A stretch of 32,000 nt of DNA from Desulfoscipio gibsoniae DSM 7213 (GCF_000233715.2 NC_021184.1:4015486-4047485); one strand, 5' to 3'. Counted from the stretch's first letter, positions 5,204 to 28,197 are shown. Notes: generated by a model from the letters alone, not told the origin. Numbers and translations are program-made.

Positions 5204-5205
5204 AA

Positions 5206-8103: not shown

Positions 8104-8155
8104 TAATATTTACCCCCCTGTTAATTTGAAGTACTAATAAATATCACCCGGATAG

Positions 8156-9250
8156 TTATTGCATTTTTTTCCTTTGTATACCGCCGCCCCGGTATACATT
8201 AACCACTTCGGCCATTATGCACAAAGCAATTTCCTCAGGTGTTTGCGCCCCTATTTCCAGTCCAATGGGTGAATATACAGCAGCCAGTTTTTCCGGAGGG
8301 ATGCCTTCTTCCGCAAGCTGTTGCATAATTGCTTTGACTTTTCTACTGCTCCCAATCATACCAACATATGCCCCGGGACGTTTTATAACCTCCCGCAAGC
8401 AGTCCCGGTCATATGCATGCCCTCTGGTAACTATTACCGTATAGGTGCCGGGGCCAATATCCATATCCGCCAGAGCCTGTTCAAAACCTGCGCAGACAAC
8501 CATGTACGCCTCGGGGAAACGGTTGTCATTGGCAAATTCCGGCCTGTCGTCAACAACAATTACTTTAAAGCCAAGAAGTGAAGCAATTTTTACCAGGGGC
8601 AGAGCAATATGCCCTCCACCGAGGATAAGTATTTCCGGATTAAGCACACCCGGATCGATAAAAAGCTGCATCTTGATATCTTGGTCCGGTGGGGAAACTA
8701 TCAACCGAGGGTTATTGTTTTTACCAGCGCCATATACGGAAGACACAGTAAAGCTGTTGATATGCCCGGACCCCAAATCACCAAGAACACTGCCATCGGG
8801 CCATACAACCATCATCCGACCCAATCGCGCATTATCTTCCCCGTTTATACCTGTTAAAGTAACCAGTGCAGGGTTTTCATCATTGAGGGTGGAATCGACA
8901 TACCGTGTTAGAACTTCCCGGGCATATTCATCATCCTTACTGACATAATTAATAAATATGTCCATATTGCCCCCGCAAATCATACCTTCATTGGCAGCAA
9001 CATTACCAGTAAGCTTAATTGTGTATTCAAATGAACTTTTCATTGCCAGTGCCTTAAGACACTCCCGCCTGACAATTTCCTCGCCGACCCCGCCGCCTAT
9101 GGTCCCGTAAATATTATAATCCGCTGTGACAATCATTTTAGTTCCGGCTTTCCGGGGAGTGGAACCCGTGGCACCGGTAATAACGGCCAAAACCCCGTCC
9201 TGCCCGCTGTCAAGTGCAAATATTAATTTTTTAATCATTTCAATACTCAT
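8156..9250 (-). CDS. xdhC: XdhC/CoxI-family molybdenum-cofactor insertion chaperone
   Basis: 364 aa. The N-terminal AVITGATGSTPRKAGTKMIV..GTIGGGVGEE pattern and the C-terminal Rossmann-like ILILGGGHIALPLVKIASLLGFKVIVVDDRPEF are both typical of XdhC. Confidence 0.85.
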   Translation of the reverse strand: MSIEMIKKLIFALDSGQDGVLAVITGATGSTPRKAGTKMIVTADYNIYGTIGGGVGEEIVRRECLKALAMKSSFEYTIKLTGNVAANEGMICGGNMDIFINYVSKDDEYAREVLTRYVDSTLNDENPALVTLTGINGEDNARLGRMMVVWPDGSVLGDLGSGHINSFTVSSVYGAGKNNNPRLIVSPPDQDIKMQLFIDPGVLNPEILILGGGHIALPLVKIASLLGFKVIVVDDRPEFANDNRFPEAYMVVCAGFEQALADMDIGPGTYTVIVTRGHAYDRDCLREVIKRPGAYVGMIGSSRKVKAIMQQLAEEGIPPEKLAAVYSPIGLEIGAQTPEEIALCIMAEVVNVYRGGGIQRKKMQ

Positions 9251-9251
9251 C

Positions 9252-10079
9252 TCAATTTACCCCCCATCTGTCCCGGCCAAGATAGAGCAATGCCTCAAGT
9301 ACTCCACCGGCTATGGCCCGGGATTTATCGGAAATGGTAAAACAGTTTTCCCTGGTTGCCCTGGGATCTATATCCCCTACCTTCATGCCTTCATGTACCT
9401 TGAGACCACTTTTCAAAAGACCCCTTAGTACTCCGTCGATAGTGGCTACCAGGGGAACATCATCAATTTTAGCCACCAACTCCCCTTTCACCACTTGGTC
9501 ACCTATTTCCTTTTCCCCATGAAATATTCCTTCGGCCGGCGCACGTAAAACACGTTCCTTACCGTAACCGCCTATAATGCCCGGTATCCCTGTGTTCGGC
9601 TCGGCGGTCCCCTTTAATATTACCCGGCCCAAATTATGTCCCCGCATGGTTTCCACCACTGCATGTACATCAACCCCCGCGGTAAATCCAGGTCCCAGGC
9701 CTATCACCACCGGCGCTTCACCAATACCGGTGCCCAGATTTTTTTTGGCCAGCACAGCATCTATCACCGCGGCGGGCTTTAATTTATCCACCAGGCTCCA
9801 GGCAGGGTCCACCGCCACCGCAATGTTACCTGCATTTACAATGGCCTGAACTTCATCTACTCCATGGGCCAGTTCAGCCGTAACACCTTCTACGCTGCAT
9901 TTTCCTTTGAATATAGCTTCAGCGTAAGATACCGTGCGTCTAATCACCGTGGGCTGTGCTATTTCCAGCATAACCAGCGTGAATCCACATCTGGCCAGCC
10001 TGTGGGCGGTACCACTGGCCAAATCCCCTCCGCCTTTGATAACCACCAGATTATTCAATAAAACCAACCCCCTGTTCAA
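9252..10079 (-). CDS. yqeB: YqeB/EF2563-family protein (selenium-dependent molybdenum hydroxylase system accessory protein)
   Basis: 275 aa. From memory, VVIKGGGDLASGTAHRLARCGFTLVMLEIAQPTVIRRTVSYAEAIF, ETMRGHNLGRVI..NTGIPG and ISDKSRAIAGGVLEA resemble the YqeB C-terminal family. It needs HMM confirmation. It overlaps the MocA gene end by 29 nt. Confidence 0.65.
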   Translation of the reverse strand: MNRGLVLLNNLVVIKGGGDLASGTAHRLARCGFTLVMLEIAQPTVIRRTVSYAEAIFKGKCSVEGVTAELAHGVDEVQAIVNAGNIAVAVDPAWSLVDKLKPAAVIDAVLAKKNLGTGIGEAPVVIGLGPGFTAGVDVHAVVETMRGHNLGRVILKGTAEPNTGIPGIIGGYGKERVLRAPAEGIFHGEKEIGDQVVKGELVAKIDDVPLVATIDGVLRGLLKSGLKVHEGMKVGDIDPRATRENCFTISDKSRAIAGGVLEALLYLGRDRWGVN

Positions 10080-10689
10080 ACTTGATCAGCTTGCTATAAT
10101 CCTCCCATGTATCAATATCAAAAACAACCCCTGCATCATCAACATCCACCCTGGCCAACTGATTTTTATTGAATTCAATAATTTTACGGGCCCCGGTATC
10201 GCCTGTAAGAGCAAATATCTCCGGAAAATATTTTTTATTGAACAACACAGGATTTCCCCTTTTGCCCCGGTAAAATGGAGCCACAATACCCTTTCCACCA
10301 AGCCTGTATTCTTCAATAATCCGGTTCACTGTCCGGGGCTTTAAAAGCGGCTGGTCACCCAGCACAAAAAGTGCCGCCCCGGCTGAATCCCCCAAAGCAT
10401 TAAGTCCGGCCCGCAGGGATGTACTCTGCCCACTGGCATAATCCGGGTTATGTACAAAATTAACATCATATTCTTTTAGTGTTTCTCTAACCTCTTCCGC
10501 CCTGTGCCCCAAAACCACAAACACTTTTTCCACACCGGTCCGGCATATTGTATCGACAACGTGAGCAACAAGGGGCCGCCCCTGGTAAGACAGCAATTGT
10601 TTAGGCGTTCCCAGGCGGGATGAGATGCCTGCGGCCAGTATCACTGCATAAATCAAATACCAATACCTCCCTGACCGGAACAGTTTCAT
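10051..10689 (-). CDS. mocA: Molybdenum cofactor cytidylyltransferase (MobA-like NTP transferase, MocA type)
   Basis: AVILAAGISSRLGTPKQLL motif. Its position in an XDH-family maturation cluster favours MocA. A more likely start is the TTG at 10656, preceded by GGGAGG with 9-nt spacing, which would give a protein starting (M)IYAVILAAG. Confidence 0.8.
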   Translation of the reverse strand: MKLFRSGRYWYLIYAVILAAGISSRLGTPKQLLSYQGRPLVAHVVDTICRTGVEKVFVVLGHRAEEVRETLKEYDVNFVHNPDYASGQSTSLRAGLNALGDSAGAALFVLGDQPLLKPRTVNRIIEEYRLGGKGIVAPFYRGKRGNPVLFNKKYFPEIFALTGDTGARKIIEFNKNQLARVDVDDAGVVFDIDTWEDYSKLIKFEQGVGFIE

Positions 10690-11425
10690 TGAGGGCGCTA
10701 ATTACTACACGCCCGGCACCCCCCTTGCACAGTGAAAACGCCACTTCCCGAGCGTTTTTCAATTCCTCCGGGGAATGCACCTTATTAATAAGAGGGACCC
10801 AGCGGCTATTTCGGGGGACGTCTTTACGATAGCCCAGGGGGTGCAGCAGTATACCTGCAACCATAGAAGGAGTAACCGGCTCTCCCTCCTCAACACCCAA
10901 CAGCCGGGAAACAACCTCAGGGCGGTGAATATACTCCTTAACGAGCGGTTTATACAGGCAATCAACCCCCACCACAGGAATTACCAGGGTAGACAGCCCT
11001 GGAATCACAGGTTCGCCTTGCCGGGGTGCTTTAAATGGTTTACGGGCCGCCCCGTCCGCCTCGACTAGCACTAAATCAGCCCCGGCCTGTAGTATTTGGC
11101 CAATTAAATCAGGGTCTATGCCAATAACTTTATTTTCTTGAGTAAAACCAGCACCAGCCACTACCATGGAACAGGTTTTGATTTTTTTCTCAATTCCCCG
11201 AAGAAGTTCCAACTCGTCCGGTTTCAACACAACATTAACTCCTGAAGCCGGAGCTGGCACATAAATACGGGTAGTGGTGGTTAAAACCACTTTATAACCT
11301 ATATTTAGCGCCTCATTCCCAATAGCAAACATAGCGGAGGTTTTTCCCCCGCCGCCCACCAGGGCTATGACATCACCTTTTTTTATTTGAAAAGCATCGA
11401 TTAATTTCATATCCGCAACCATCAA
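10601..11425 (-). CDS. yqeC: YqeC-family putative selenium-dependent hydroxylase accessory protein (P-loop-like)
   Basis: 274 aa with ALVGGGGKTSAMFAIGNE..VVLTTTTRI, the GGGGKT(S) signature I associate with the YqeC family. The 3' end overlaps mocA out of frame. Confidence 0.65.
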   Translation of the reverse strand: MMVADMKLIDAFQIKKGDVIALVGGGGKTSAMFAIGNEALNIGYKVVLTTTTRIYVPAPASGVNVVLKPDELELLRGIEKKIKTCSMVVAGAGFTQENKVIGIDPDLIGQILQAGADLVLVEADGAARKPFKAPRQGEPVIPGLSTLVIPVVGVDCLYKPLVKEYIHRPEVVSRLLGVEEGEPVTPSMVAGILLHPLGYRKDVPRNSRWVPLINKVHSPEELKNAREVAFSLCKGGAGRVVISALNETVPVREVLVFDLCSDTGRRHLIPPGNA

Positions 11426-12278: not shown

Positions 12279-14597
12279 TTATACCCCCACTGAAACCTTT
12301 TCCTTTTCCCTTTTTTCTTTCAGAGCACGCCATACTTTTTCATAGGTAAGGGGCAAGCTATTTACCCGGATACCCATGGCATCATAGATAGCATTGGCAT
12401 AGCAACCCATAGTGGGAATGGTGGCTCCTTCACCTACCTCTTTAACTCCCCAGGGACCCGCGGGTTCATAGCTTTCCACCAGCGCAGAGGTCACCTTGGG
12501 CATATCCATGGCTGTGGGCATCCGGTACTCACCCAGGTTGGGATTTAGTATTTTCCCTTGATCATCAAAGAGAACCTGCTCCCAAATGGACTCGCCCATA
12601 CCCATGAAAAGTGCCCCGTGCACCTGACCGTGCAGCAGGGATGGGTTAATTACCATGCCGCAGTCATGAACATCCCACACCTCTTGCACATCAATTTCAC
12701 CAGTTTCTTCATCAATTTGAACTTCACTTATCTGGGCTGCAAAACTGTAGGCCGGGGAAGTGCCCACCGGCGCCCCCTTAAATTTTCCTCCAAGTTTAGG
12801 TGGAGCATAAACTCCTTTACCCACCAGCGGTCCTTTACGGACAAAGAACTCCCTGGCTACCTCGCCAAAAGGCTTTGTTATTTCAGAATCTGATTTCACG
12901 AATATGGCGCTATCCCGGCAATCCAAATCGCTAACCTCAACTTCCATCATTTCCGCGGCCAGTTCCAACACCTGCTTTTTAACCTCTTCACCGGCTTGTT
13001 TTACGGCAGATCCCGACATGAGCGTCTGCCTGCTGGCATAGGCGCCGAAATCATGGGGGGTAGTTTCCGTATCAGCGGCGACAATCTTCATATTTTCATA
13101 TCTAAAGCCCATAGCTTCTGCAGCCATCTGGCATAGTACGGTATCGGAACCCTGCCCGATATCCGTGGCCCCGGTGTATAAAGTGGCTGCGGAGCCGTCC
13201 TCATGCACCTTTATTATCGCTGAGGCATGGGGAAGATTGGTGCGGTATATGGGGTAACCTGCACCGCTGACAAAGCTTCCCACGGCGATACCAATACCCC
13301 TGCCTTTGCCAAGTTTACCTTTTTTCTGTTGCCAACCCGAAATTTCCTTGGCTTTACTAATACACTCAGCAAGTTCACAGGAATTGACCTTAAATTCATT
13401 GGGTGTGATGGTATTGGGCTGGCGGGCGTTTACCTTACGAAGCTCAATGGGATCTATCCCCAAGTCCGTTGCCACATTATCCAGATGGCATTCAAAGGCA
13501 TACCTGGGCTGTGGGGCCCCGTGACCCCGCTGGGCACCACAGGCGGGTAAATTAGTATACGTCCTGATCATATCAAACTTGTAGTTAACAAAATCATAGG
13601 TAAGAGTCAGCATCGCCCCGGCATAATAGGCTGTGGCAATACCAAGGCTGGTATAGGCCCCGCCGTCCATAATAAAGTTAGCGTGCACCCCGAGTATTTT
13701 ACCGTTCTTATCCACACCGGTGGTAATTTCCATTATTTGCTTATGCCGGCCCCGGTTATGAGCAAACATTTCGTGGCGGTCGTAAAACATTTTAACCGGG
13801 CGCCCGGTGATTTTGGACAATACCGCTCCGCAGAACTCCAATCCGGTGGGTTCCAGCTTTCCTCCAAACCCACCGCCTACATATGTCTTAATAACCCGTA
13901 CATCCCCCATTTTCAAACCAAATTCACGGGCAATGTAATACTGAAAATAGTGGGGCGACTGGGTACTGGAATAAACGGTAAGCTTCCCACCCTCCCAAAT
14001 GGATATGGCCGAGTGAGGCTCAATAGGACACTGGTAGGTGCGGTTGCCCACGAAGCGGTCTGTGCGCACATGGTGTGCCTCGGCGAAGGCTTTTTCCACA
14101 TCTCCGAAATTCTGGTGGATTTCCGTATTGATGTTCCTGGGATACTCATCGTGTATCTGAGGAGCCCCTTCCTTAATGGCCTCTTCGGGATCAAAAACCG
14201 CAGGAAGAACTTCGTATTCAACTTTAATCAGTTTGAGGGCTTTATAAACGGTTTCCTCATCCACGGCAGCTATGGCGGCTACTTTATCCCCTACAAAGCG
14301 TACCTTGTCAATACAAAATATATTTTCATCCCAGCGGGCCGGGCTGATACCGTATTTCAAGCTGGGCACATCTTTATGGGTAATAACGGCCTTGACACCG
14401 GGCAGTTTTTCGGCCTCCGAAGTATCAATGCTGATTATCCTGGCATGGGCATGGGGGCTGGTAAGAATTTTGCCCACCAGCATGTTGGGAAATTTAAGGT
14501 CGCCGGTGTATTTAGCCTGGCCGGTAACTTTCACCCGGCCATCCATTTTGGGTACACTTTTGCCGATAACGGAATATTTATCACTCACAACGCTCAC
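12279..14597 (-). CDS. Molybdopterin-binding large subunit of a xanthine dehydrogenase-family enzyme, set 2 (paralogue of 2406-4721)
   Basis: 772 aa. Same motif set as set 1 (IGKSVPKMDGRVKVTGQAKYTGD, GGGFGGK, GVKEVGEGA) and collinear with the set-1 protein. Confidence 0.9.
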   Translation of the reverse strand: MSVVSDKYSVIGKSVPKMDGRVKVTGQAKYTGDLKFPNMLVGKILTSPHAHARIISIDTSEAEKLPGVKAVITHKDVPSLKYGISPARWDENIFCIDKVRFVGDKVAAIAAVDEETVYKALKLIKVEYEVLPAVFDPEEAIKEGAPQIHDEYPRNINTEIHQNFGDVEKAFAEAHHVRTDRFVGNRTYQCPIEPHSAISIWEGGKLTVYSSTQSPHYFQYYIAREFGLKMGDVRVIKTYVGGGFGGKLEPTGLEFCGAVLSKITGRPVKMFYDRHEMFAHNRGRHKQIMEITTGVDKNGKILGVHANFIMDGGAYTSLGIATAYYAGAMLTLTYDFVNYKFDMIRTYTNLPACGAQRGHGAPQPRYAFECHLDNVATDLGIDPIELRKVNARQPNTITPNEFKVNSCELAECISKAKEISGWQQKKGKLGKGRGIGIAVGSFVSGAGYPIYRTNLPHASAIIKVHEDGSAATLYTGATDIGQGSDTVLCQMAAEAMGFRYENMKIVAADTETTPHDFGAYASRQTLMSGSAVKQAGEEVKKQVLELAAEMMEVEVSDLDCRDSAIFVKSDSEITKPFGEVAREFFVRKGPLVGKGVYAPPKLGGKFKGAPVGTSPAYSFAAQISEVQIDEETGEIDVQEVWDVHDCGMVINPSLLHGQVHGALFMGMGESIWEQVLFDDQGKILNPNLGEYRMPTAMDMPKVTSALVESYEPAGPWGVKEVGEGATIPTMGCYANAIYDAMGIRVNSLPLTYEKVWRALKEKREKEKVSVGV

Positions 14598-14606
14598 CCC
14601 TTCTTT

Positions 14607-15098
14607 TTATTCACCGGCGGCAGCCAGAATAGCTTTGACAATATTCACATATCCCGTACAGCGACAGAGGTTGCCGGCTATGGCCTCCCGGATTTCCTCT
14701 TCTGTGGGATGGGGGTTTTTAGTAAGCAGTGCCTTGGCTGACATAATCATTCCCGGTGTGCAGTAACCGCACTGCACAGCTGCATTTTCGATAAAGGATT
14801 CCTGTATTTTGTCCAGTTTTTCACTTTGGGCCAAACCCTCAACAGTGGTAATTTCGCGGCCATCCGCTTCCACCGCGAGGACAATACAGGAATTAACGGG
14901 CTTGCCGTCCATGAGAACGGTACAAGAGCCGCAGTCCCCCAGCTCACAACCTTTTTTAGTTCCCGTTAAATCGAGCTCTTCTCTTAAAAAATTAACTAAT
15001 AGGGTGTTCGCCTTGACAACCCGGGTATAATTATCCCCGTTAACCTGAATGGTAACCAAATATCTTTTTACTCCGTTATTATCAATTATTGCCTGCAT
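14607..15098 (-). CDS. [2Fe-2S]-binding small subunit, set 2
   Basis: 163 aa with CELGDCGSCTV, CGYCTPG and CRCTGY motifs. Confidence 0.92.
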   Translation of the reverse strand: MQAIIDNNGVKRYLVTIQVNGDNYTRVVKANTLLVNFLREELDLTGTKKGCELGDCGSCTVLMDGKPVNSCIVLAVEADGREITTVEGLAQSEKLDKIQESFIENAAVQCGYCTPGMIMSAKALLTKNPHPTEEEIREAIAGNLCRCTGYVNIVKAILAAAGE

Positions 15099-15110
15099 AA
15101 TCCACCCCTC

Positions 15111-15980
15111 CTACACATGACCTTCATCTATGGCTTTACGGAGGGCACGTTTGGTAAATACTCTGACCATATCCCTCCGGTACTCTTCAGAGCCGCGGAT
15201 ATCCGAAATAGGCTTACATTCTGTGGATGCGCACACACCCACTTCTTCCAACAATTCCTCATTGACTGTTTTCCCTATGATCATAGCCTCAGCTTTTGGG
15301 GCTCTCATGGGAACCGGGCCCACGGCGCCGAGAGCAATCCTGGCATCCTTGCATACATTGCCCTCCATGGTAACCGCCACCGCTACTCCCACCACCGCCA
15401 GGGCACCCGAACGGCGCAGGCCGAATTTTATATAGGTGCTGCCTGTTAAGGGCTGGTCGGGAATTACTATTTCCGCAACTATCTCATCCTGAGCTATCCG
15501 GGTTTTACCGGGACCCACAAAGAAATCTTCCAGTGCCATTACCCTTTCACCCTGTCTCCCCACCAGGGTGATTGAAGCACCAAGTGCCATCAATATGGGC
15601 GGTAGGTCAGCAGACGGCACGGCGTTTACTATATTACCGCCTATGGTACCTACGTTTCTTATCTGATTATTCGCCATATGATGGGCAGCCTCACACAAAG
15701 AAAGATATTTTTCCTGGAGCAACAATGAATTGCAGATGTCATTGTGTGTGGCCCTGGCTCCTATTACCACGCCTTTGTCCGGTACGTATGCTATACTAGT
15801 TAGCTGGTCAAGTTGCTTGAGCGAAATAAGGACTTCAGGAGCTACCAGGCCATGCTTCATTTTATTCAAGAGGTCGGTACCCCCTGAAAGAATTTTGGCC
15901 GTTGGACCTTTTTCCGCCAGCAAGGCACAGGCCTCCTGCACGCTGGCGGGCATGTAATACTCGAAATCCGGTAAAAACAT
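15111..15980 (-). CDS. FAD-binding medium subunit, set 2
   Basis: 289 aa with GGTDLLNKMK and TIGGNIVNAVPSAD motifs. A GGAGG RBS lies upstream of the ATG. Confidence 0.9.
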   Translation of the reverse strand: MFLPDFEYYMPASVQEACALLAEKGPTAKILSGGTDLLNKMKHGLVAPEVLISLKQLDQLTSIAYVPDKGVVIGARATHNDICNSLLLQEKYLSLCEAAHHMANNQIRNVGTIGGNIVNAVPSADLPPILMALGASITLVGRQGERVMALEDFFVGPGKTRIAQDEIVAEIVIPDQPLTGSTYIKFGLRRSGALAVVGVAVAVTMEGNVCKDARIALGAVGPVPMRAPKAEAMIIGKTVNEELLEEVGVCASTECKPISDIRGSEEYRRDMVRVFTKRALRKAIDEGHV

Positions 15981-16051
15981 ACTCTACCTCCTCAAATAAA
16001 AAAATTGTCACCCATTGTAAACGCCGTTCTGTATTGTGTACTTGCACCTAT

Positions 16052-16080
16052 ATTATGAATTATCTGAAAGTTGCTGTCAA
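16052..16080 (-). promoter_or_regulatory. Sigma-A promoter for the set-2 molybdoenzyme operon
   Basis: Minus strand reads TTGACA (16080-16075), a 17-nt spacer, then CATAAT (16057-16052). It lies about 70 nt upstream of the ATG at 15980. Confidence 0.6.
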
Positions 16081-16243
16081 TATGTAAAACAGCTAAATCG
16101 CAAGAGAATTTGGGGAAGCAAGGGGACGGCTCTCATGCTTCCGTAGCTTAGAAAATTAATGGACGATCCTCTTGCTCCTCAGCTTACCTATGTTTGACCA
16201 AATTATTTTCATATTTTTAGTCTACATTGTCGGTTAAATGTAA

Positions 16244-16271
16244 TTGAATTTTTTTTTAAAAAATATACAAT
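16244..16271 (+). promoter_or_regulatory. Candidate sigma-A promoter of the RavA/ViaA-like cassette
   Basis: TTGAAT (16244-16249), a 16-nt T/A-rich spacer, then TACAAT (16266-16271). The -10 element overlaps the first 18-bp repeat. Confidence 0.45.
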
Positions 16272-16320
16272 AGTTAACTAAACAACAATAGTTAACCAAA
16301 CAACAATAGTTTAAAGATTA
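16267..16320 (+). repeat. Three tandem 18-bp direct repeats (iteron or operator-like)
   Basis: ACAATAGTTAACTAAACA (16267-16284) and ACAATAGTTAACCAAACA (16285-16302) match at 17/18. A partial third unit ACAATAGTTT.. starts at 16303. Unit 1 contains the perfect 10-bp palindrome TAGTTAACTA (16271-16280). Confidence 0.7.
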
Positions 16321-16327
16321 ATAACCG

Positions 16328-17644
16328 GTGCTTAGCGGAGGAGGTTTATATAAATTGATAAAACAAAACGATATTTTAAAGAAAATAGTTCACACGGAGG
16401 ATTACCTGAATAGTTTTTTTCTGGAAAGAGAAACTTTGATCTCTTTACTGCTATTAACTATATTTTCCAAGCAAAACATGTTTATTTTAGGCAAGCCGGG
16501 TGTGGCTAAAACAGAACTAGTTAACCAGGCCTCTTTAATGATTAAAAATGCCAGAATTTTTAGATACCTCCTCACAAAATACACCACCCCGGAAGAAATT
16601 TTCGGTTCAATATCTCTTGGCAAGCTGAAAGAGGATCGCTTTTATAGAAAAATTGATAACAAATTAGCTGACGTAGAAATTGGCTTTATCGACGAAATTT
16701 TCAAAGGAAACAGCTCTATACTGAACAGCCTGCTAATGATTGCCAATGAAAAGATTTTTATTAACGATAACGAGGTAGTTAATGTACCCCTGATATCCCT
16801 GTTCGGAGCCTCCAATGAAATCCCGGACGATGAAGAAATGGAAGAATTGCAAGCCTTGTACGACCGGTTTACAATAAAATACATCGCCGAGCCCATTAAA
16901 GATTTTAGAAACTTTTCCAGGCTTCTTTTATCCGGTGATAAGCCGGCACCGGTTGCTGACAGTATGCTTCTGGATCTAGATGAATTATCGATTATATACG
17001 ATGAATCACAAAACATTACACCCGACCAGGATATCTTAAACTTGATATATAAAATAAGGGAATATTGTTATGAAAATAATCATTATGTATCCGATAGAAA
17101 ATTTAGGAATACCGTAAAAGTACTAAAAGTTTGTGCTTATGTTAACGGTAGGTCAAGTATTATCGCCGAAGATTTATTTATAATGCCGTATATGATTTGG
17201 GAAAAGCCAGAGGACTTTTTAACCATTAAACAGGATGTACAGAATATCTTATTTGATCATATCTTCAATAGCATCCTCTCAAAAATATCCATTAGAGTTT
17301 CTGATTCCTTTGCCAAGTTTTTGGATGACTTAATTTTATCTTCAAATAATAATTACAATGAATATACTAAGTGCTACAGCTATTTAAAACCAAAACAAAA
17401 AGAAGACTTAATTATTCAATACCAACTAATAAGAGAATATTTATATAAAATAAGTAGAATTGTTGAGCATTTGGAGGCAGAGATACTATCTTATGAAGCA
17501 AAACAGTATCTTAGAGTTAACCGTTTAATTCACCAGCAAATTAACCTGACTATCAACAACAAATTAGCGGAATTTGTTAGCTATAAAAATAAACTTGATG
17601 GATTAAATGAAAAAATTCAGTCTACACTGCACGAGGGAGACTGA
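16328..17644 (+). CDS. MoxR-class AAA+ ATPase, RavA-like
   Basis: Walker A is GKPGVAKT, Walker B is IGFIDEIFK, sensor-1 is LFGASNE and the Arg finger is ALYDRF. The sensor-2 region VSDRKFRNTVKVLKVCAYVNGRSSIIAEDL parallels E. coli RavA as I recall it. The C-terminal part is coiled-coil-like rather than a recognisable LARA domain. The likely true start is the TTG at 16355, about 10 nt after GGAGGAGG (16337-16344). Confidence 0.85.
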   Translation: MLSGGGLYKLIKQNDILKKIVHTEDYLNSFFLERETLISLLLLTIFSKQNMFILGKPGVAKTELVNQASLMIKNARIFRYLLTKYTTPEEIFGSISLGKLKEDRFYRKIDNKLADVEIGFIDEIFKGNSSILNSLLMIANEKIFINDNEVVNVPLISLFGASNEIPDDEEMEELQALYDRFTIKYIAEPIKDFRNFSRLLLSGDKPAPVADSMLLDLDELSIIYDESQNITPDQDILNLIYKIREYCYENNHYVSDRKFRNTVKVLKVCAYVNGRSSIIAEDLFIMPYMIWEKPEDFLTIKQDVQNILFDHIFNSILSKISIRVSDSFAKFLDDLILSSNNNYNEYTKCYSYLKPKQKEDLIIQYQLIREYLYKISRIVEHLEAEILSYEAKQYLRVNRLIHQQINLTINNKLAEFVSYKNKLDGLNEKIQSTLHEGD

Positions 17645-17646
17645 TT

Positions 17647-19353
17647 ATGAACTATATAAAACATGATCAGTACGACCGGATGTATTTTAATTATCTTGAA
17701 CAAAAATATGATTTAACCAACCTTGTCCAGGGTAATAAAATGAAAATACTAGACAGAGATATGTTATTCGACCTGTACAACATACTTTTTAAAGAACATC
17801 TGGAAGTACTGGCACCTAACAAACGGCAAGTTTCACGTAATGATTATATTAGGTTTTTACTTATTAACAAGATCATGGAAAGCAACTATTTAAAAAAAAT
17901 TAAAAAGTATACTGTCTTTAACGAGCAAAATAGTTATTTATTTATTTCTCAGCTTCTCGATTCTTTTTCCACCTTTAGCATGTGGGAGGATGAAGATACC
18001 GGTGAGACCCAGGAACTTTTGGACTCAGTGGACCAATTGGCCAAAGAAACTAATGATAATTCCCCCGCTAAGTTAGATAACAGCAAAGAGAGAGATTCCG
18101 GGGCTGCCGGCCATGATGAAAATTTACAACAAGATACAAACAAACAATACAGTGACATAACTGATAAAATCTCTAAATATATAAACAACAACGCCACTTT
18201 TTTACAGACCCTTAACCAGTTAGGCTCATTACCCACTCCCGATAAAGTAAAAGGCATCAATACGGTTTATGATCTTAACCAACTTGCAGATAGCCTGGAA
18301 AAACTAAAAAAAGTGTTGACTATGCCCGGCTCAGGATTATCAGAAAGGCTGGAAAAAGATCTGCAAAAATTATCTTTTTATCACGGCGTACCGATAGAAA
18401 AAATAATCATCGATGAAATGGACAAATTTGCACGACAAGTCAGTCAGCAAGTAGAAAAAGATATTAACAAAAAAAAGCAATTATATGACAGTTTAAAGAA
18501 ATTAAGCTCCCACAGCTACTGGGATCTGACCCTGGGCAGCTTGATCCAGACCAACCCTGAATTTTGCTTTTATCTGGCGAACATCATAAAGAGACACCCG
18601 GAAATTTTAAGAATAACTAAATTAGTTGGCAATTTAAAAGAGATTCGGATTCATAAGCAAAAAAAATTACATAAATCCACTTATGAATGCAAAATGAACA
18701 TTTCAACCTCTAATGATATTACAAACCTGATACCCCTGGAGCTTTTGTATTTGGATGAACAACTGGAATATATCTTTTATAATAAATTAATAGAACAAAA
18801 GTTTTATACCTATGATTATAAATCCCGCAGCAACAAGGGCAAAGGGGGCATAATCATCTGCCTTGATACTTCCGGAAGTATGATTGGGGATAAACTTGAT
18901 CTCTTGAAAGCGATCATTCTAAATATCGCTCTGGGTGTGCTAAGACAAAAAAAATACTTTGCCTTAATCAATTTCAGCAGCTCGATGAAAGATGTTTTAC
19001 TGCTGCCCCACAGGCCTGACTTAAAAAAATTTATTAATTTGTTGACCTCTTCATTTTATGGCGGCACCAATTTTGACACACCCATCAAAAGAACGCTGGA
19101 AATAATCGAAAATCTCAAACATCATCGTGAATCAGATATATTAATTTTTACCGACGGTTTCGGTAAACTGAGCGACGAAGTACTAAACAAGCTGAAACGC
19201 AGCCAGAAAAAATATCGCTTTGGCCTGTTTGGTTTTTTAATCGACCATACTTCTAAAAGCAGTGACCTGGCAAATTGCTGCGATAGAATTTTTTATTTAT
19301 CATCCAGTAATTTACTCAAAGACATCCTGAACCAGCTTGGGAGATTGGCTTAA
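17647..19353 (+). CDS. von Willebrand factor A (VWA) domain protein, ViaA-like
   Basis: 568 aa. The C-terminal VWA domain carries MIDAS residues IIICLDTSGSM, ..GGTNF.. and ..LIFTDG. The preceding LEYIFYNKLIEQKFYTY segment resembles the ViaA pre-VWA region. The middle is acidic, low-complexity and probably disordered (about residues 115-170). The start is 2 nt after the ATPase stop, with a GAGGGAG RBS. Confidence 0.85.
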   Translation: MNYIKHDQYDRMYFNYLEQKYDLTNLVQGNKMKILDRDMLFDLYNILFKEHLEVLAPNKRQVSRNDYIRFLLINKIMESNYLKKIKKYTVFNEQNSYLFISQLLDSFSTFSMWEDEDTGETQELLDSVDQLAKETNDNSPAKLDNSKERDSGAAGHDENLQQDTNKQYSDITDKISKYINNNATFLQTLNQLGSLPTPDKVKGINTVYDLNQLADSLEKLKKVLTMPGSGLSERLEKDLQKLSFYHGVPIEKIIIDEMDKFARQVSQQVEKDINKKKQLYDSLKKLSSHSYWDLTLGSLIQTNPEFCFYLANIIKRHPEILRITKLVGNLKEIRIHKQKKLHKSTYECKMNISTSNDITNLIPLELLYLDEQLEYIFYNKLIEQKFYTYDYKSRSNKGKGGIIICLDTSGSMIGDKLDLLKAIILNIALGVLRQKKYFALINFSSSMKDVLLLPHRPDLKKFINLLTSSFYGGTNFDTPIKRTLEIIENLKHHRESDILIFTDGFGKLSDEVLNKLKRSQKKYRFGLFGFLIDHTSKSSDLANCCDRIFYLSSSNLLKDILNQLGRLA

Positions 19354-19377
19354 TTTTATTTATAAATTATAATAACC

Positions 19378-20023
19378 CGACATGGATCAGCAAAGGACAT
19401 TTTTTCCGATTGGCGCCACCGCCAACTGGCCAACAAGCTAACCCTGGAAAGGAGACCTGTCCTGCTGCCGGCAGAATCGCTACAAAATACATTTGCCAGG
19501 CTTATTTCTCCTATTATCATCGAACAGGATATACAGGGCTATGTTAGCTTTCTTAAAACATCAGGGGAGTTCAACGAGCTGGACCAGACAACTTTGAATC
19601 TGGCAGCCTCGGTTTTTGCCCTTAAAATGATGCAGACCCGGACTATAGCAGAAGTAGAAACCCGTCTCAAGGGCAACTTAATTAATGATTTAATTGCAGG
19701 TCACTTTGATTCTGAAAATTCCATCATTGAGAGGGCGACCTATCTGGGCTATAATCTTAACCATCGGTAAGTTGCTGGAGTACGACATTAAACACCAAAC
19801 CCATTTGGTAGAAAACCTGCATCTTTATTTTAATTATGGTGGAAGTATTCAAGATGCTGCTAAAGCTGCCGCTCTCACGCAAAGTGGCTTTAAATATCGC
19901 TTTAAAAAGATTTGTGAGGTGAGCGGCTTTAATTTAAAAGACCCGGATAAAAGATTTGATCTACAAATGGCTTTAAAAATATGGTGTATCACCAGGGGCA
20001 GCGAAAACTTGCCTAACAGCTAA
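19378..20023 (+). pseudogene. Decayed paralogue of the V4R-PucR regulator at 26233-28197: 5'-truncated, internally deleted and frameshifted
   Basis: Frame 1 (19378-19770) reads ..RHGSAKDIFSDWRHRQLANKLTLERRPVLLPAESLQNTFARLISPIIIEQDIQGYVSFLKTSGEFNELDQTTLNLAASVFALKMMQTRTIAEVETRLKGNLINDLIAGHFDSENSIIERATYLGYNLNHR*. This aligns to residues of about 280-409 of the 654-aa protein. Similarity resumes in frame 2 at 19766 (GKLLEYDIKHQTHLVENLHLYFNYGGSIQDAAKAAALTQSGFKYRFKKICEVSGFNLKDPDKRFDLQMALKIWCIT), matching residues of about 569-646. The tracked ORF 19694-20023 starts on a TTG with no RBS, and its first 25 codons are out-of-frame sequence. Confidence 0.8.
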
Positions 20024-20056
20024 ATAATTAACATTTGTATTTTATTAATTCCCCCT

Positions 20057-20095
20057 AAAAGAGAACGCTTCACCCAGTGAGGCGTTCTCTTTTTA
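20057..20095. terminator. Bidirectional rho-independent terminator
   Basis: GAGAACGCTTCAC-CCA-GTGAGGCGTTCTC forms a stem of about 13 bp. It is flanked by AAAA on the left and TTTTT on the right. It serves the plus-strand remnant and, in the opposite direction, the amidohydrolase transcript. Confidence 0.8.
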
Positions 20096-20118
20096 AGTAC
20101 AGCGAACATTACTTATTG

Positions 20119-20202
20119 GATTTCTACCCGAAGACATTCTCCATTTCCCCTGTGACGTTCAACGTTTAACTTTCAACTTTCAACTTTCAACACCCGGCAC
20201 CA
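20119..20202. repeat. Composite dispersed repeat, copy 2 (short form) with three perfect AACTTTC heptads
   Basis: Left arm TTTCTACCCGAAGACATT..CATTTCCCCTGTGACGTTC, then heptads aacgttt, aactttc x3 and aacaccc, then right arm ..CTTTCAACACCCGGCACCA. It ends 3 nt from the stop codon of the amidohydrolase gene. Confidence 0.65.
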
Positions 20203-20204
20203 AG

Positions 20205-21047
20205 TTAAGAAAGTTTAAGCCTGACCCCTAATAATTTTGCGGCATTTTGACCCAAGATTTTATCCTTTGCATCCTCAGCCAAGGGCAGCGCCCGGATGGT
20301 TTCAATATTTTTGCGAACATCCTTGATACTGGGCCAGTCGGAACCAAATATAACTTTATCGGCCACTCTTTCCAGCTCGGGAAAATAGGTAAGCAATTTT
20401 TGCGGCGGCAGCCCTGCAACTTCCATATATACATTTTCGTGGAGCCTGGCCAGGAAAAAAGCGTGTTGATACCAAAAACCCCTGCCGCTGTGCACAATAA
20501 CTATGGGCAGGTCGGGAAAGTCAACAGCCACATCGTCCAGGTAAAGAGGGTCACCGTACTTTAGTCGTGACCCTTTAAAAACTGAGGATCCGGTATGAAA
20601 CATAACCGGAATTCTTAGTGCCTCCGCCTCGGCATAAAGCGGGTAAAGGAAGCTGTCATTAGGATAAAATAATTGGTAAGTAGGATAGAGCTTAACACCC
20701 CGGAAACCGCCGGTCACCAGGCGCTTTAACTCACTTCTCGAATTCGGGGTCATATAGGGGTTAATACTAGCAAAAGGGATAAGCTTTTCTTGTCCCGCAC
20801 AGAACTGCATTACATACTCATTGGAACACATACCAGTGGCCGCAGGACACAGCTCAGCCAAAACAACTCCGTAATCCACACCATTTGCATCCATGTATTT
20901 AACGAACTGATCCGGATCGCAAAACTTGTTATAAAATTCCTGCCAGTCTTCCACTGATTGAGTGTTTTGTACAAAGTCAAGTGAGCTTTGGTTATAATAC
21001 TCATAGTGTATGGGGTGGATGTGAAAATCTATAACGGGATAACTCAT
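20205..21047 (-). CDS. Amidohydrolase_2-family metal-dependent hydrolase/decarboxylase (ACMSD/LigW/gamma-resorcylate decarboxylase superfamily)
   Basis: 280 aa. N-terminal IDFHIH (HxH metal ligands), an internal VMFHTG, IVIVHSG, and C-terminal FGSDWP with the conserved Asp. Confidence 0.8.
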   Translation of the reverse strand: MSYPVIDFHIHPIHYEYYNQSSLDFVQNTQSVEDWQEFYNKFCDPDQFVKYMDANGVDYGVVLAELCPAATGMCSNEYVMQFCAGQEKLIPFASINPYMTPNSRSELKRLVTGGFRGVKLYPTYQLFYPNDSFLYPLYAEAEALRIPVMFHTGSSVFKGSRLKYGDPLYLDDVAVDFPDLPIVIVHSGRGFWYQHAFFLARLHENVYMEVAGLPPQKLLTYFPELERVADKVIFGSDWPSIKDVRKNIETIRALPLAEDAKDKILGQNAAKLLGVRLKLS

Positions 21048-26232: not shown

Positions 26233-28197
26233 TTATATGTTTGGCTCATGATTACTACCTTTTGTTGTAATGCACCAAACTTTTAAAGCCATTTGTAAAT
26301 CAAATCTTTTATTAGGATCTTTAAAATCAAAGTTACCTACTTCACAAATTTTCCTGAGGCGATATCTAAACCCACTTGGTGTAACAGCCGCGGCAATGGC
26401 TGCCTTTTTAATATTACCGTCGTAACTAAAGTAAAGATTAAGAGTTTCAACTAGTTCGGTTTGATACTTGACATCATATTCCAACAACTTACCAAGCTGT
26501 TCCTTCATAAAAGCAAGAAGGTCTTTCTGATCAGCGGCATGAAAAAGTAGGCCGTAAGTACCCAAGCTGTCAAATGAAATCACAGTATTGCTCTGATTTA
26601 GCCCCTTCATTACTTTCAGTGCCCGCTGAGCCTCCTGGTAGGACAGGGGAAAATCCCTAAGGGCATGGCAAATCCGGCCTATGCCAATCGAAATATTAAT
26701 TTGCGGGAATTGCTGATTAAAACGTTCCCGGATACTCTTAGCCACTTCTATAATCTTAGAAGATGCTGTATTTGCTCCTAATGAGATGAATACGATAATG
26801 TTATTATTACTGTCGTCCGCAACTATACCTTGCCGATTACAATTATTAAGCGCTTTGTTAACCGCATCACAGATTCGCTCTTTAAAACGAATAATTTTTG
26901 TTTGATCACGTTTTAAGTGTTCAATCACACTCGTCAAGTTTTCTAAATTAATAATCATGACACTATGGGGCTGACTGATATTATAACCAAGGTAATTTGA
27001 CCTTTCTATAATATCCATTTCAGTGTTAAAATTACCCGCAATTAAATCCTTAACAAGATTACCACTAAGACGGGTTTCCACCTCTGCCACAGCCCGGGTC
27101 TGCATCATCTTTATAGCAAAAATTGAAGCCGCATGGTCTAAAGTTAACCGATCCAACTCAGTAAAATTTTCAAAAGTTTTAATAGTACTAACAAAACCCA
27201 GAACATCCTGACCGATTACGATCGGGGAAATAAGTCTGGAAAAAGGATTCCTGGAAGTTTCGACCAAAAGCTGGACCTGTCTTTTTTCCTGGATTAGCGT
27301 GGTGGAGAGGTCGCGATGGCGCGGATTACTAAAAATATCTTTTGCTGAACAAGACATATGCGTTGGAAAGTTATTTGCCACCAACGTTGTGGGTGTAAAA
27401 TAAGCAACTGGCCTAAAAAACAGGTCCTCAACAATCACCGTTCCTCCAATCATGCTACCTAAAGTTGCGGCTATGACTGACATATCCTTTCCATCTAACA
27501 CCAGTCTGTTTAGCTGTTTATGGATGGCCATCGATTGTTTTAATATATCATTTTGGGCACGCATCCTGACAAGGGCCTGATCTAATGCTTTATCTTTGTT
27601 AATATCCTTGTAGTATTGCAACTCAGGAAGTATTTCATCACCCCACGCAGCCAATGTCTTGCCGATATACCTGCAGTGCGGGTCACCTTTGGCTGAGCAA
27701 GATACTTCTTTAATAATTACCCGTTCACCCAATAGAGCCGACATACTACCACTGGCATAACCCACCAGCGTCCAGCATACCGGTTCTGTTGCGGGGCCGA
27801 AATGCTTCACATGATGTTCGGCTTCGTAAGAATCATGCCAGATACCTTCGCAACACCAATTGTTTTCGTCTTCATTAGAGTACATCTCTATCGGGGAGAC
27901 ACGGGCCATACCCACAAATGTATGAAAAAGTACGCTCAGTTGGTAGCTGTCAATTTTACCTTTTGGAGAGAAATCTTGCAGAGTGTTTACAGCATCGCGA
28001 TAACCGATGGCAAAACCGTAGCGAATCAACAACCCCTTTGCTTTTTCTGTATCCAAAGAGCTAATGAGGTCCTTGCGCAGAACTCCAATCGCCTCGGCAT
28101 TAAGAATTAGTACCCGCATGTTTTTAAGGTAGTTTTTCCCTGCCTCGGGCTGTAGGCTAAGCATTTTTTCAAGATGCAAGTCATTAATCTTGATCAT
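26233..28197 (-). CDS. Transcriptional regulator: XylR_N/V4R aromatic-effector sensor domain fused to a PucR-type middle region and C-terminal HTH
   Basis: 654 aa. Residues of about 25-180 resemble the DmpR/XylR A-domain (RVLILNAEAIGVLRKDLISSLDTEKAKGLLIRYGFAIGYRDA). They include the V4R Cys/Glu pattern PVCWTLVGYASGSMSALLGERVIIKEVSCSAKGDPHCRYIGK. The C-terminus (LVETLNLYFSYDGNIKKAAIAAAVTPSGFRYRLRKICEV) is a PucR-type HTH. No sigma-54 AAA+ module is present. Confidence 0.8.
   Translation of the reverse strand: MIKINDLHLEKMLSLQPEAGKNYLKNMRVLILNAEAIGVLRKDLISSLDTEKAKGLLIRYGFAIGYRDAVNTLQDFSPKGKIDSYQLSVLFHTFVGMARVSPIEMYSNEDENNWCCEGIWHDSYEAEHHVKHFGPATEPVCWTLVGYASGSMSALLGERVIIKEVSCSAKGDPHCRYIGKTLAAWGDEILPELQYYKDINKDKALDQALVRMRAQNDILKQSMAIHKQLNRLVLDGKDMSVIAATLGSMIGGTVIVEDLFFRPVAYFTPTTLVANNFPTHMSCSAKDIFSNPRHRDLSTTLIQEKRQVQLLVETSRNPFSRLISPIVIGQDVLGFVSTIKTFENFTELDRLTLDHAASIFAIKMMQTRAVAEVETRLSGNLVKDLIAGNFNTEMDIIERSNYLGYNISQPHSVMIINLENLTSVIEHLKRDQTKIIRFKERICDAVNKALNNCNRQGIVADDSNNNIIVFISLGANTASSKIIEVAKSIRERFNQQFPQINISIGIGRICHALRDFPLSYQEAQRALKVMKGLNQSNTVISFDSLGTYGLLFHAADQKDLLAFMKEQLGKLLEYDVKYQTELVETLNLYFSYDGNIKKAAIAAAVTPSGFRYRLRKICEVGNFDFKDPNKRFDLQMALKVWCITTKGSNHEPNI

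Follow-up and report, generated by a model that had tools for sequence, protein, structure and literature searches.

The stretch of the Desulfoscipio (Desulfotomaculum) gibsoniae chromosome analysed here, 32,000 nucleotides long and referred to throughout as the window, contains two adjacent genes that encode a MoxR AAA+ ATPase and a VWA-domain protein. They are the only large plus-strand ORFs of the window with family matches (Table 1). The one other family match on that strand is a fragment of a PucR regulator; the remaining family-matched genes all lie on the minus strand. An earlier note on this DNA had presented the pair as the sole convincing plus-strand genes, which is right for large ORFs but leaves the PucR fragment out of account, and had placed the start of the cassette at 16100, a position that proves to be intergenic. 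The ATPase ORF spans 16328/16355-17644, with TTG 16355 as the probable true start, in agreement with the public 429-aa gene call and with the N-termini of homologs.

Table 1. Features of the window around the ATPase-VWA gene pair (positions counted from the first nucleotide of the window)
Feature	Position	Strand	Basis or remark
Molybdenum-cofactor accessory genes	7084-11425	-	co-occur with the pair
MoeA/MoCF-like	7084-8103	-	
XdhC	8156-9250	-	XdhC-related NCBIfam model, 308 bits vs 350
YqeB	9252-10079	-	
MocA	10051-10689	-	
YqeC	10601-11425	-	
XDH-family operon resembling 4-hydroxybenzoyl-CoA reductase	12279-15980	-	probable client
Mo subunit	12279-14597	-	TIGR03194, 1148 bits
2Fe-2S subunit	14607-15098	-	
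FAD subunit	15111-15980	-	
Divergent promoter-like site of XDH-family operon	16052-16080	-	TTGACA-17 nt-CATAAT; 11/12 consensus match
Putative sigma-70-like promoter of pair	16244-16271	+	TTGAAT-16 nt-TACAAT; consensus scan
18-nt tandem repeat ACAATAGTTAACCAAACA, 2.5 copies	16267-16311	+	TRF score 83; overlaps -10 element and 5' leader
Ribosome-binding site GGAGGAGG	16337-16344	+	10 nt before TTG start 16355; read from sequence
RavA-subfamily MoxR AAA+ ATPase, 429 aa	16355-17644	+	AAA+ module and lid, then three-helix C-terminal tail
ViaA-like VWA partner, 568 aa	17647-19353	+	Pfam VWA_2/VWA; invariant MIDAS residues
PucR-type regulator relic	19387-20017	+	tblastn against intact regulators, 60-69% identity; Pfam HTH_30 7.8e-14
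Hairpin, 17-bp perfect stem, A/T runs on either side	20057-20093		inverted repeat I5, 94% complementary

The operon to the left of the pair encodes the FAD, 2Fe-2S and Mo subunits of an XDH-family enzyme. Its Mo subunit scores above the cut-off of TIGR03194, the model for 4-hydroxybenzoyl-CoA reductase alpha (1148 bits against 994.55), and 1rm6_A is its best PDB match (E 1.3e-173). Among the molybdenum-cofactor (Moco) accessory genes lying beyond it, YqeB, YqeC and MocA score above their NCBIfam cut-offs (TIGR03309, TIGR03172 and TIGR03310); YqeB and YqeC mark selenium-dependent Mo hydroxylases (PMC2276186).

The ATPase is a RavA-type MoxR protein with all catalytic residues. Its Pfam matches are bpMoxR (1.2e-47; the best-scoring model, at 162 bits), AAA_5 (1e-23) and AAA_lid_8 (3.3e-24), and its sole PDB sequence match is E. 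coli RavA (E 7e-48, residues 13-304). RavA structures (4upb/3nbx/6q7l) also take ranks 1-4 when its model is compared by Foldseek (E ~1e-20, TM 0.64-0.66). The full set of MoxR/RavA catalytic motifs that had been claimed for it is borne out by a 42-sequence alignment, in which Walker A (G46/G49/K52), Walker B (D113/E114), sensor 1 (N154), the Arg finger (R171) and sensor 2 (R248) are invariant. The NCBIfam RavA equivalog profile (NF010054) covers it at profile positions 4-309 of 498 only, and the score of 198.3 bits is under the cut-off of 681. No LARA or RavA C-terminal domain was found in the protein, Pfam and NCBIfam being silent beyond residue ~305, and no lysine decarboxylase gene was found in the window. 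The 125-aa tail that had been said to stand in place of LARA is predicted to consist of three long helices (317-339, 342-379 and 387-426 in an AF2 model with a pLDDT of 91.9).

The ATPase gene is translationally coupled to the gene of its partner: the junction reads GAGGGAGAC-TGA-TT-ATG, which is the stop, 2 nt, ATG arrangement originally noted. The VWA protein begins with a conserved N-terminal domain (residues 1-112), followed by an acidic, low-confidence linker (~113-165), a long helical middle region, a conserved pre-VWA element (~350-395) and a VWA domain with its MIDAS (~400-565; VWA_2/VWA Pfam match at 402-562). MIDAS residues D407, S409, T474 and D503 are invariant and S411 is nearly so; the model has a pLDDT of 76.6 overall and below 50 at 142-153. 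A complete MIDAS behind an acidic linker, as first described, is therefore upheld. A word-indexed search of 5.8 billion proteins yields only 12 full-length homologs, and the N-terminal 250 residues are specific to this family. The distant relatives are ViaA-like, in that all 10 of the 10 best-scoring ones checked have ViaA as their top NCBIfam match. The ViaA model itself (NF008230) gives 85.2 bits over residues 257-525, against a cut-off of 500, and Pfam VWA_CoxE (PF05762) gives 19.5 bits against 26.4. Thus, profile searches place the two proteins with bpMoxR, AAA_5, AAA_lid_8 and VWA, but they return no LARA match and no score above the VWA_CoxE or ViaA cut-off, and the proposed RavA/ViaA identity holds at the level of the subfamily but not of the equivalog.

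The pair is predicted, from consensus and conservation, to have its own promoter: a TTGAA(A/T)...TACAAT element recurs at the equivalent place in the related loci L005, L014 and L010. The sequence around the divergent promoter-like site of the XDH-family operon is conserved in the same loci, and the left junction, both promoters included, is conserved at the nucleotide level and can be aligned across the loci of four lineages. Words resembling CAATAGTT reappear in the L005 and L014 leaders, and the 18-nt tandem repeat may be an operator. The scan located no terminator-like site on the plus strand between 19354 and 20056; the hairpin at 20057 is the first such structure 3' of the pair.

Relatives of the ATPase, 57-82% identical to it, occur in ~7 lineages of Desulfotomaculia, and every full-length relative pair either adjoins an orthologous XDH-family operon or sits within a Moco accessory operon. 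In one clade (ATPase identity 82% in L005, 70% in L014 and L016, 69% in L008 and 67% in L010) the pair is divergent from an orthologous FAD-FeS-Mo operon. In the other, represented by L012, L013 and L015 (57-58%), it ends a single-strand operon of the order YqeC-(MocA)-MoCF-YqeB-(XdhC)-MoxR-VWA, which an intact PucR regulator precedes; L012 has the order XdhC-MoxR-VWA, and the L013 ATPase gene shares 8 nt with a YqeB-like gene. In the window, as in L005, L008, L010, L012, L014 and L016, both an enzyme of the XDH family and a protein of the XdhC family cluster with the pair; in L013 and L015 the XDH operon is present and YqeB, not XdhC, precedes the pair. The link to the XDH enzyme family and to YqeC, MocA, MoeA-like, YqeB and XdhC genes holds without exception across ~7 lineages. 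When ranked by identity, the MoxR and VWA proteins follow the same order as the XDH and accessory genes at their flanks, a sign of co-inheritance.

Since the pair is constantly found beside a Mo enzyme and the genes that assemble its cofactor, it most likely helps to mature that enzyme and is not a recent foreign or defence cassette. Gene neighbourhood and analogy suggest that it is probably a MoxR AAA+/VWA chaperone dedicated to XDH-family molybdoenzymes resembling 4-hydroxybenzoyl-CoA reductase in aromatic-degrading Desulfotomaculia. The idea of a maturation or remodelling chaperone on the pattern of CoxD/CoxE, raised earlier for this locus, gains support from the XDH/Moco context of all full-length relatives. 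The parallel with NorQ/NorD, CbbQ/CbbO and CoxD/CoxE/CoxF suggests that the ATPase would form a hexamer and that the VWA protein would dock onto the ring. The MIDAS-bound metal of the VWA protein might hold on to an acidic patch of the apo-enzyme or of an XdhC/YqeB cofactor carrier, and ATP hydrolysis would open the folded apo-enzyme, into which the molybdopterin-cytosine-dinucleotide (MCD) cofactor, or a labile sulfur or selenium ligand, could be inserted, or in which it could be repaired. In CO dehydrogenase, it is in the already folded apo-enzyme that CoxD (MoxR), CoxE (VWA) and the XdhC-like CoxF bring the Mo site to maturity (PMC4240915). NorQ/NorD, the source of the mechanistic model, inserts FeB; the MIDAS is required with respect to the target, whereas binding to the ring does not depend on it (PMC9976466).

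The proven Mo-site system is homologous only at the superfamily level, since the ATPase is of the RavA branch and its partner's VWA domain stays under the CoxE Pfam cut-off. E. coli RavA-ViaA, the closest characterised relative, is not known to take part in Mo-cofactor insertion. It is possible, if somewhat doubtful, that a RavA-type ATPase and a ViaA-like adaptor were recruited independently of CoxD/CoxE as the ATP-driven maturation step and act with XdhC/YqeB/YqeC, opening the folded apo-enzyme of a Se/S-dependent Mo hydroxylase akin to 4-hydroxybenzoyl-CoA reductase for insertion of MCD or of the labile Se/S ligand. If so, the pair would give the RavA-ViaA family, which is still enigmatic, a tractable model with a defined client and would tie MoxR-VWA machines to the poorly understood accessory set of the selenium-dependent molybdenum hydroxylases. 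The pair is not generally required for the enzyme, as orthologous enzyme clusters do without it within 10 kb in L095 (Pelotomaculum sp. PtaB.Bin013), L096 and L097, and the enzyme family is far more widely distributed (1939 homologs vs ~12 for the pair).

These enzyme clusters that lack the pair also lend something to an unlikely alternative, in which it serves as a RavA-ViaA-type modulator of general scope, acting for instance on membrane, respiratory or Fe-S complexes as has been proposed in E. coli, and its proximity to the molybdoenzyme genes is due to co-regulation or to hitch-hiking in an aromatic-catabolism island. RavA is, after all, the nearest solved and characterised homolog, and in E. 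coli both fumarate reductase and NADH dehydrogenase I have been found in association with RavA-ViaA (PMC10585395, PMC3893208). However, the Moco/XDH linkage persists across two architectures, to the point of operon membership and the 8-nt overlap with the YqeB-like gene. Both proteins stay far below their equivalog cut-offs (RavA and ViaA), and genes for respiratory complexes are not conserved around the pair. A further, improbable reading makes the client another cofactor enzyme of the island in place of the molybdoenzyme, candidates being UbiD/UbiX-type (prFMN) carboxylases and the components of the Fe-S/ATP-dependent benzoyl-CoA reductase. Several loci do carry UbiD/UbiX, phenylphosphate-synthase-like and BcrAD/HGD-D genes no more than 10 kb away from the pair, but these neighbours differ from locus to locus, whereas each locus has the XDH operon or the Moco accessory genes as immediate neighbours of the pair, and the accessory genes share its operon in L012, L013 and L015.

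The AT-richness of the pair against the molybdoenzyme flank, first estimated by eye, is confirmed by computation: 33.3% G+C in the ATPase gene and 35.4% in the VWA gene, 46.7-50.7% in the adjacent molybdoenzyme genes (thus 12-17 points under the left flank), 40-45% in the right-flank genes and 45.49% in the D. gibsoniae genome (PMC4148979). AT-richness is common to all orthologous pairs, and while overall G+C differs from the flanks, that of four-fold-degenerate sites in the D. gibsoniae genome (GC4) matches them, at 0.49 for the pair vs 0.50. What lowers the G+C is a conserved protein composition rich in K/N/I/Y/F/L, and not recent foreign origin. No tRNA, meaningful flanking repeats or mobile-element mark was found at the pair, nor any plasmid or phage similarity. 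A recently acquired islet was accordingly rejected on the flank-like GC4, the lack of repeats, tRNA and plasmid or phage matches, and the retention of the junction in L005, L014 and L010.

The regulator to the right of the pair, previously said to lack its first ~280 codons, lacks 283 of them, as well as ~159 internal codons, and carries a frameshift. It begins 34 nt past the VWA stop codon; 19387-19761 corresponds to residues 284-408 of the intact paralogue at 26233-28197, and 19763-20017, in a shifted frame, to residues 568-653, HTH included. A recent insertion or replacement by the cassette is contradicted by the left junction conserved in four lineages and by the lost 5' part of the regulator, which was not found across the cassette, upstream of the pair. 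An intact orthologous regulator does exist elsewhere, in L012, L013 and L015, where it occurs together with the pair. The relic reflects debris of a local rearrangement to the right of the pair.

It is thus scarcely credible, and already largely refuted, that the pair is an NTPase-VWA module of the conflict or defence type, acquired horizontally and recently inserted between the enzyme promoter and the regulator gene so as to truncate the latter: the low G+C, the nearby relic, the patchy distribution among related enzyme clusters and a best Pfam match named after conflict systems are outweighed by the evidence just given, by the lack of any PADLOC defence family at the pair and by the absence, here and in all relatives' neighbourhoods, of the third component and effectors that define MoxR-vWA conflict systems (PMC7159879).

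Among known systems, E. coli RavA-ViaA has the same RavA-type AAA+ module and lid, the same translationally coupled order of ATPase and VWA genes, a partner that combines the ViaA middle region with a MIDAS-bearing VWA domain at its C-terminus, and a setting of anaerobic metabolism. Unlike RavA, the D. gibsoniae ATPase has no LARA domain and no RavA similarity past residue ~305; its partner is 85 aa longer than ViaA, with a different N-terminal 250 residues; the equivalog scores are 198/681 and 85/500; and its neighbourhood is made up of molybdoenzyme and Moco accessory genes, ldcI and respiratory-complex genes being absent nearby. MoxR-vWA ternary conflict systems (Kaur, Burroughs, Iyer and Aravind, eLife, 2020) share the MoxR-vWA core and the bpMoxR match, but neither the D. 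gibsoniae pair nor its relatives have a VMAP, iSTAND, beta-propeller or effector gene; conservation is limited to the two genes, their other neighbours being Moco/XDH genes, and the context of the pair is a housekeeping cofactor operon. NorQ-NorD and CbbQ-CbbO resemble it in the build of the partner, whose N-terminal domain is joined by a disordered linker to a C-terminal VWA domain with MIDAS, the VWA domain of NorD being among the fold matches (9qhe/9qhd); they differ in having a CbbQ/NorQ-type MoxR, a single AAA+ module without helical tail, and in their clients, cNOR and Rubisco. CoxD belongs to a MoxR subfamily other than the RavA type of the D. gibsoniae ATPase, the VWA domain falls short of the VWA_CoxE cut-off, no copper site is expected, and the accessory set here includes YqeB and YqeC. 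What CoxD-CoxE-CoxF of Oligotropha carboxidovorans nevertheless has in common with the D. gibsoniae locus is a MoxR AAA+ protein, a VWA protein with MIDAS and an XdhC-family protein beside an XDH-family enzyme, and a proposed action on the folded apo-enzyme.

The MoxR ATPase and VWA protein genes are invariably linked to a single enzyme family and the genes for its cofactor: wherever a full-length member occurs, its neighbours have the same functions, arranged in either of two architectures. In the first, at the relatives' loci L005 (82% ATPase identity), L014/L016 (70%), L008 (69%) and L010 (67%), the pair diverges from an orthologous FAD-FeS-Mo operon, as it does in the window, and the Mo subunits are 85-94% identical to the window's. 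In the second (L012, L013 and L015; 57-58% ATPase identity), the pair closes an operon whose genes all run on one strand, YqeC-(MocA)-MoCF-YqeB-(XdhC)-MoxR-VWA, and which sits behind an intact PucR-type regulator; at L013 the YqeB-like and ATPase genes overlap by 8 nt. Ranked by identity, the MoxR and VWA proteins of these loci follow the order of the flanking enzyme and accessory proteins, which fits a pair that has been inherited together with its neighbours while evolving faster.

The clade is narrow, about a dozen sequences among billions. There are ~12 full-length ATPase homologs (57-82% identity), the next matches being ~43% identical and confined to the AAA+ core, and a word-indexed search gave 12 homologs of the VWA protein. 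Searched with a profile, 1.84 billion cluster representatives yielded only two full-length VWA-family clusters and then a drop to E 1e-43; most of the next-best matches are proteins of 450-600 aa, and ViaA is the top NCBIfam model for each of the ten checked, at ~70-115 bits against a cut-off of 500. Among GTDB species representatives the VWA-family profile is matched at full length solely in Pelotomaculum terephthalicicum JT and a Desulfotomaculum MAG, the remaining 78 loci of that scan encoding generic ViaA-like proteins (20-32% identity). The enzyme family is far more widespread, and no MoxR-VWA pair was found within 10 kb of the orthologous enzyme clusters L095, L096 and L097; L095 (13905-20471, Pelotomaculum sp. 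PtaB.Bin013) has the same cluster of enzyme, YqeB-like, XdhC, IclR, YqeC and MocA genes, into which a ModABC-like transporter has been inserted. Thus, the pair is a lineage-specific helper, optional rather than a universal requirement.

The earlier note described two plus-strand genes amid minus-strand neighbours, translationally coupled (stop, 2 nt, ATG) and AT-rich, and the description holds in each respect. Apart from the pair and a regulator fragment, all ORFs with a family match in the window lie on the minus strand; the junction of the ATPase and VWA genes reads GAGGGAGAC TGA TT ATG; and the computed G+C of the two genes is 33.3% and 35.4%, against 46.7-50.7% in the adjoining molybdoenzyme genes and 40-45% in those of the right flank. 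(The D. gibsoniae Groll chromosome has 45.49% G+C and 314 pseudogenes; PMC4148979.) The ATPase, 100% identical to the publicly annotated 'AAA family ATPase [Desulfoscipio gibsoniae]', likely starts at TTG 16355, 10 nt downstream of GGAGGAGG, in agreement with the public 429-aa gene call and the N-termini of its homologs. The pair has its own promoter, divergent from that of the enzyme operon; the intergenic region can be aligned among the window, L005, L014 and L010, and both promoters lie in its common parts. An 18-nt tandem repeat overlapping the pair's -10 element and leader may be an operator; CAATAGTT-like words are found again in the leaders of L005 and L014. Rfam gave nothing credible for the whole window at gathering threshold or for the 5' region at E <= 1 (the sole match, isrJ, scores 19 bits against 37), and so there is no Moco riboswitch.

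Features of the gene pair and its surroundings (window coordinates)
Feature	Position	Strand	Basis or remark
XDH-family operon, second	2406-6093	-	
FAD subunit of second operon	5206-6093	-	
YqeB, 275 aa	9252-10079	-	TIGR03309, 374 bits vs cut-off 220; no Pfam match
MocA/YgfJ	10051-10689	-	TIGR03310
YqeC	10601-11425	-	TIGR03172
XDH-family operon adjoining pair	12279-15980	-	
Mo subunit of adjoining operon	12279-14597	-	NCBIfam 4-hydroxybenzoyl-CoA reductase alpha equivalog passed, 1148 bits vs 994.55; best PDB match 1rm6_A, E 1.3e-173
ORF, 352 aa	13683-14741	+	Antisense inside Mo-subunit gene; almost certainly spurious
FAD subunit of adjoining operon	15111-15980	-	
Enzyme operon promoter	16080-16052		TTGACA-17-CATAAT
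Promoter of pair	16244-16271		TTGAAT-16-TACAAT
18-nt tandem repeat	16267-16311		ACAATAGTTAACCAAACA, 2.5 copies
ATPase ORF	16328/16355-17644	+	ORF call
VWA ORF	17647-19353	+	ORF call
Regulator relic, first part	19387-19761	+	Residues 284-408 of intact paralogue; matches three intact regulators at 60-65% identity
Regulator relic, second part	19763-20017	+	Different frame; residues 568-653; 67-69% identity
Hairpin	20057-20093		
Heptamer tandem repeat	20158-20191		TTCAACT, 4.9 copies; between hairpin and Amidohydro_2 gene 3' end

The ATPase matches bpMoxR (1.2e-47), AAA_5 and AAA_lid_8 in Pfam, and among solved structures its sequence matches E. coli RavA alone (E 7e-48, residues 13-304). The full set of MoxR/RavA catalytic motifs claimed for it is indeed there: the residues of Walker A, Walker B, sensor 1, Arg finger and sensor 2 do not vary across an alignment of 42 sequences. 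To judge from its sequence, it is a catalytically competent ATPase of RavA type. Its AlphaFold model (pLDDT 91.9) finds RavA (4upb, 3nbx and 6q7l) as best structural match (E ~1e-20, TM 0.64-0.66), and has the C-terminal 125 residues as three long helices. Since Pfam and NCBIfam give no match to RavA past residue ~305, this helical tail means that the LARA domain is absent, as had been claimed. The VWA protein has the complete MIDAS VWA domain ascribed to it (residues 402-562, with D407, S409, S411, T474 and D503 conserved) behind an acidic linker (~113-165), a segment that is variable and of low model confidence; when its model was compared with the PDB by Foldseek, the N-terminal and middle regions found no match and generic VWA domains alone were matched. 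Profile searches thus place the pair in the MoxR/RavA branch and among VWA proteins, but short of the equivalog cut-offs for RavA (198 against 681 bits, LARA being absent), ViaA (85 against 500) and CoxE (19.5 against 26.4).

D. gibsoniae is a Gram-positive sulfate reducer noted for anaerobic breakdown of aromatic compounds. To the left of the pair lie two XDH-family operons, each with FAD, 2Fe-2S and Mo subunits, and, past an IclR-family regulator gene, MoeA-like, XdhC, YqeB, MocA and YqeC genes; to the right, past the relic, are genes for an Amidohydro_2 protein, UbiX, UbiD, CoA ligases and an intact XylR_N-V4R-GGDEF_2-PucR regulator. The window's two operons are distant paralogues (Mo subunits 42% identical), whereas the second operon at L005, L008, L010 and L014 is a closer paralogue of the pair-adjoining one (70-73%), and so the complement of such enzymes varies among species. 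The FAD subunit fails the beta-subunit model of 4-hydroxybenzoyl-CoA reductase (140 against 404 bits; 289 aa against a 321-position profile); it looks like an ordinary CoxM/CutM-type flavoprotein, probably without the extra [4Fe-4S] loop known from the Thauera enzyme. YqeB, YqeC and YgfJ/MocA have been proposed as accessory markers for selenium-dependent molybdenum hydroxylases (PMC2276186). The full proposed set sits here beside 4-hydroxybenzoyl-CoA reductase-like enzymes, a hint that the latter might use a labile selenium ligand. At L096 (3889-6960), an orthologous XDH operon (FAD subunit 74% identical) has cysteine-desulfurase-like, SelD-like (AIRS/AIRS_C), TusA and Se_S_carrier genes upstream, which is consistent with that hint.

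The position of the AT-rich pair between the promoter of the enzyme operon and a regulator gene said to lack its first ~280 codons had been taken as the pattern of a cassette that arrived by insertion or replacement. Overall G+C does differ from the flanks, but four-fold-degenerate sites are alike (0.49 in the pair, 0.50 in the flanks) in D. gibsoniae, which leaves no foreign mutational signature. At six of six other loci the pair's G+C is 13-20 points under its neighbours', a deficit that persists where the genes are co-operonic and also in a 57%-G+C genome; in relatives (L005, L008, L012, L013 and L014) it follows the host yet stays offset. The low G+C is driven mainly by protein composition, the F+L+I+M+N+K+Y fraction being 0.51-0.52 against 0.31-0.37 in the neighbours and the G+A+R+P fraction 0.12-0.13 against 0.24-0.33. 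Four-fold-site G+C at the other loci is 0.04-0.21 below the flanks (0.66 against 0.87 at L008), a residual offset for which weak expression or an ancient low-G+C origin is possible. A steep dip in G+C may thus be a trait that a gene family conserves through its protein composition, rather than evidence of recent transfer.

The regulator is truncated as described, and further: by the residue ranges matched, it lacks its XylR_N/V4R half (283 codons) and ~159 internal codons, and is frameshifted. That missing half is absent from the rest of the window, which rejects a simple gene-splitting insertion; with the left junction kept in relatives (the right one is different at every locus) and no foreign mutational signature, arrival in that manner is not borne out. 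The relatives do offer an intact regulator, at L012, L013 and L015, but there it coexists with the pair. The relic is 65-69% identical to the L013 regulator, comparable to the 63% of the accessory genes, and is probably what remains of the ancestral operon regulator, lost through a deletion or rearrangement on the right side rather than cut in two by an arriving cassette. Downstream of the VWA gene the hairpin is the first terminator-like site, and the pair's transcript probably continues through the relic.

Nor is a horizontally acquired module of conflict or defence type, the other origin that had been considered, borne out: PADLOC assigns neither protein to a family, depriving this reading of its chief possible support; the third component and effectors by which conflict MoxR-vWA systems are defined (PMC7159879) have no conserved counterpart near the pair in the window or its relatives; and a tRNA scan found none, repeats flanking the pair (direct or inverted, 15900-20300) are short AT-rich chance matches only, and plasmid and phage collections hold no match to the cassette DNA. 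The bpMoxR match on its own is not diagnostic of a conflict system, since RavA itself is the closest structure.

The reading as a RavA/ViaA-like chaperone for the neighbouring Mo enzyme gains from the conserved Moco/XDH context, the function itself being suggested by analogy. MoxR-VWA pairs are widespread and their known clients few: cNOR, Rubisco, CO dehydrogenase and Mg/Co chelatase. Which client the RavA-ViaA branch serves physiologically is a matter of debate. Here, conserved gene order ties the pair to a single family of enzymes and to the genes that assemble its cofactor, which makes for a clear testable client hypothesis: by analogy, it would be a client-defined RavA/ViaA-type system, and possibly an ATP-driven step so far missing from the maturation of these molybdoenzymes. 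Such a partner could account in part for the installation of a labile ligand, and co-expression of the pair may be needed when such enzymes of Gram-positive anaerobes are to be made in active form in another host. We found no earlier account that places a MoxR-VWA pair in clusters for 4-hydroxybenzoyl-CoA reductase or in those for accessory proteins of selenium-dependent hydroxylases; '4-hydroxybenzoyl-CoA reductase' and 'von Willebrand' come together in no paper of the library searched, and neither MoxR nor VWA is mentioned in the study of accessory genes for selenium-dependent Mo hydroxylases (PMC2276186).

With NorQ/NorD, the VWA domain sits as a plug in the pore of the hexamer, and the MIDAS is required for the client but not for binding to the ring (PMC9976466); with CoxD/CoxE/CoxF, the Mo site is matured inside the folded apo-enzyme by three proteins, namely an AAA+ ATPase, a VWA protein and one resembling XdhC (PMC4240915). 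By analogy with both, the ViaA-like protein would connect the ring of the ATPase with the apo-enzyme or with an XdhC/YqeB cofactor carrier, and hydrolysis of ATP would then make the enzyme open up, so that the MCD cofactor or a labile S/Se ligand can be inserted. It is thus in its presumed mode of action that the pair is likened to CoxD/CoxE/CoxF and NorQ/NorD; by homology it falls in the RavA/ViaA branch of MoxR-VWA systems.
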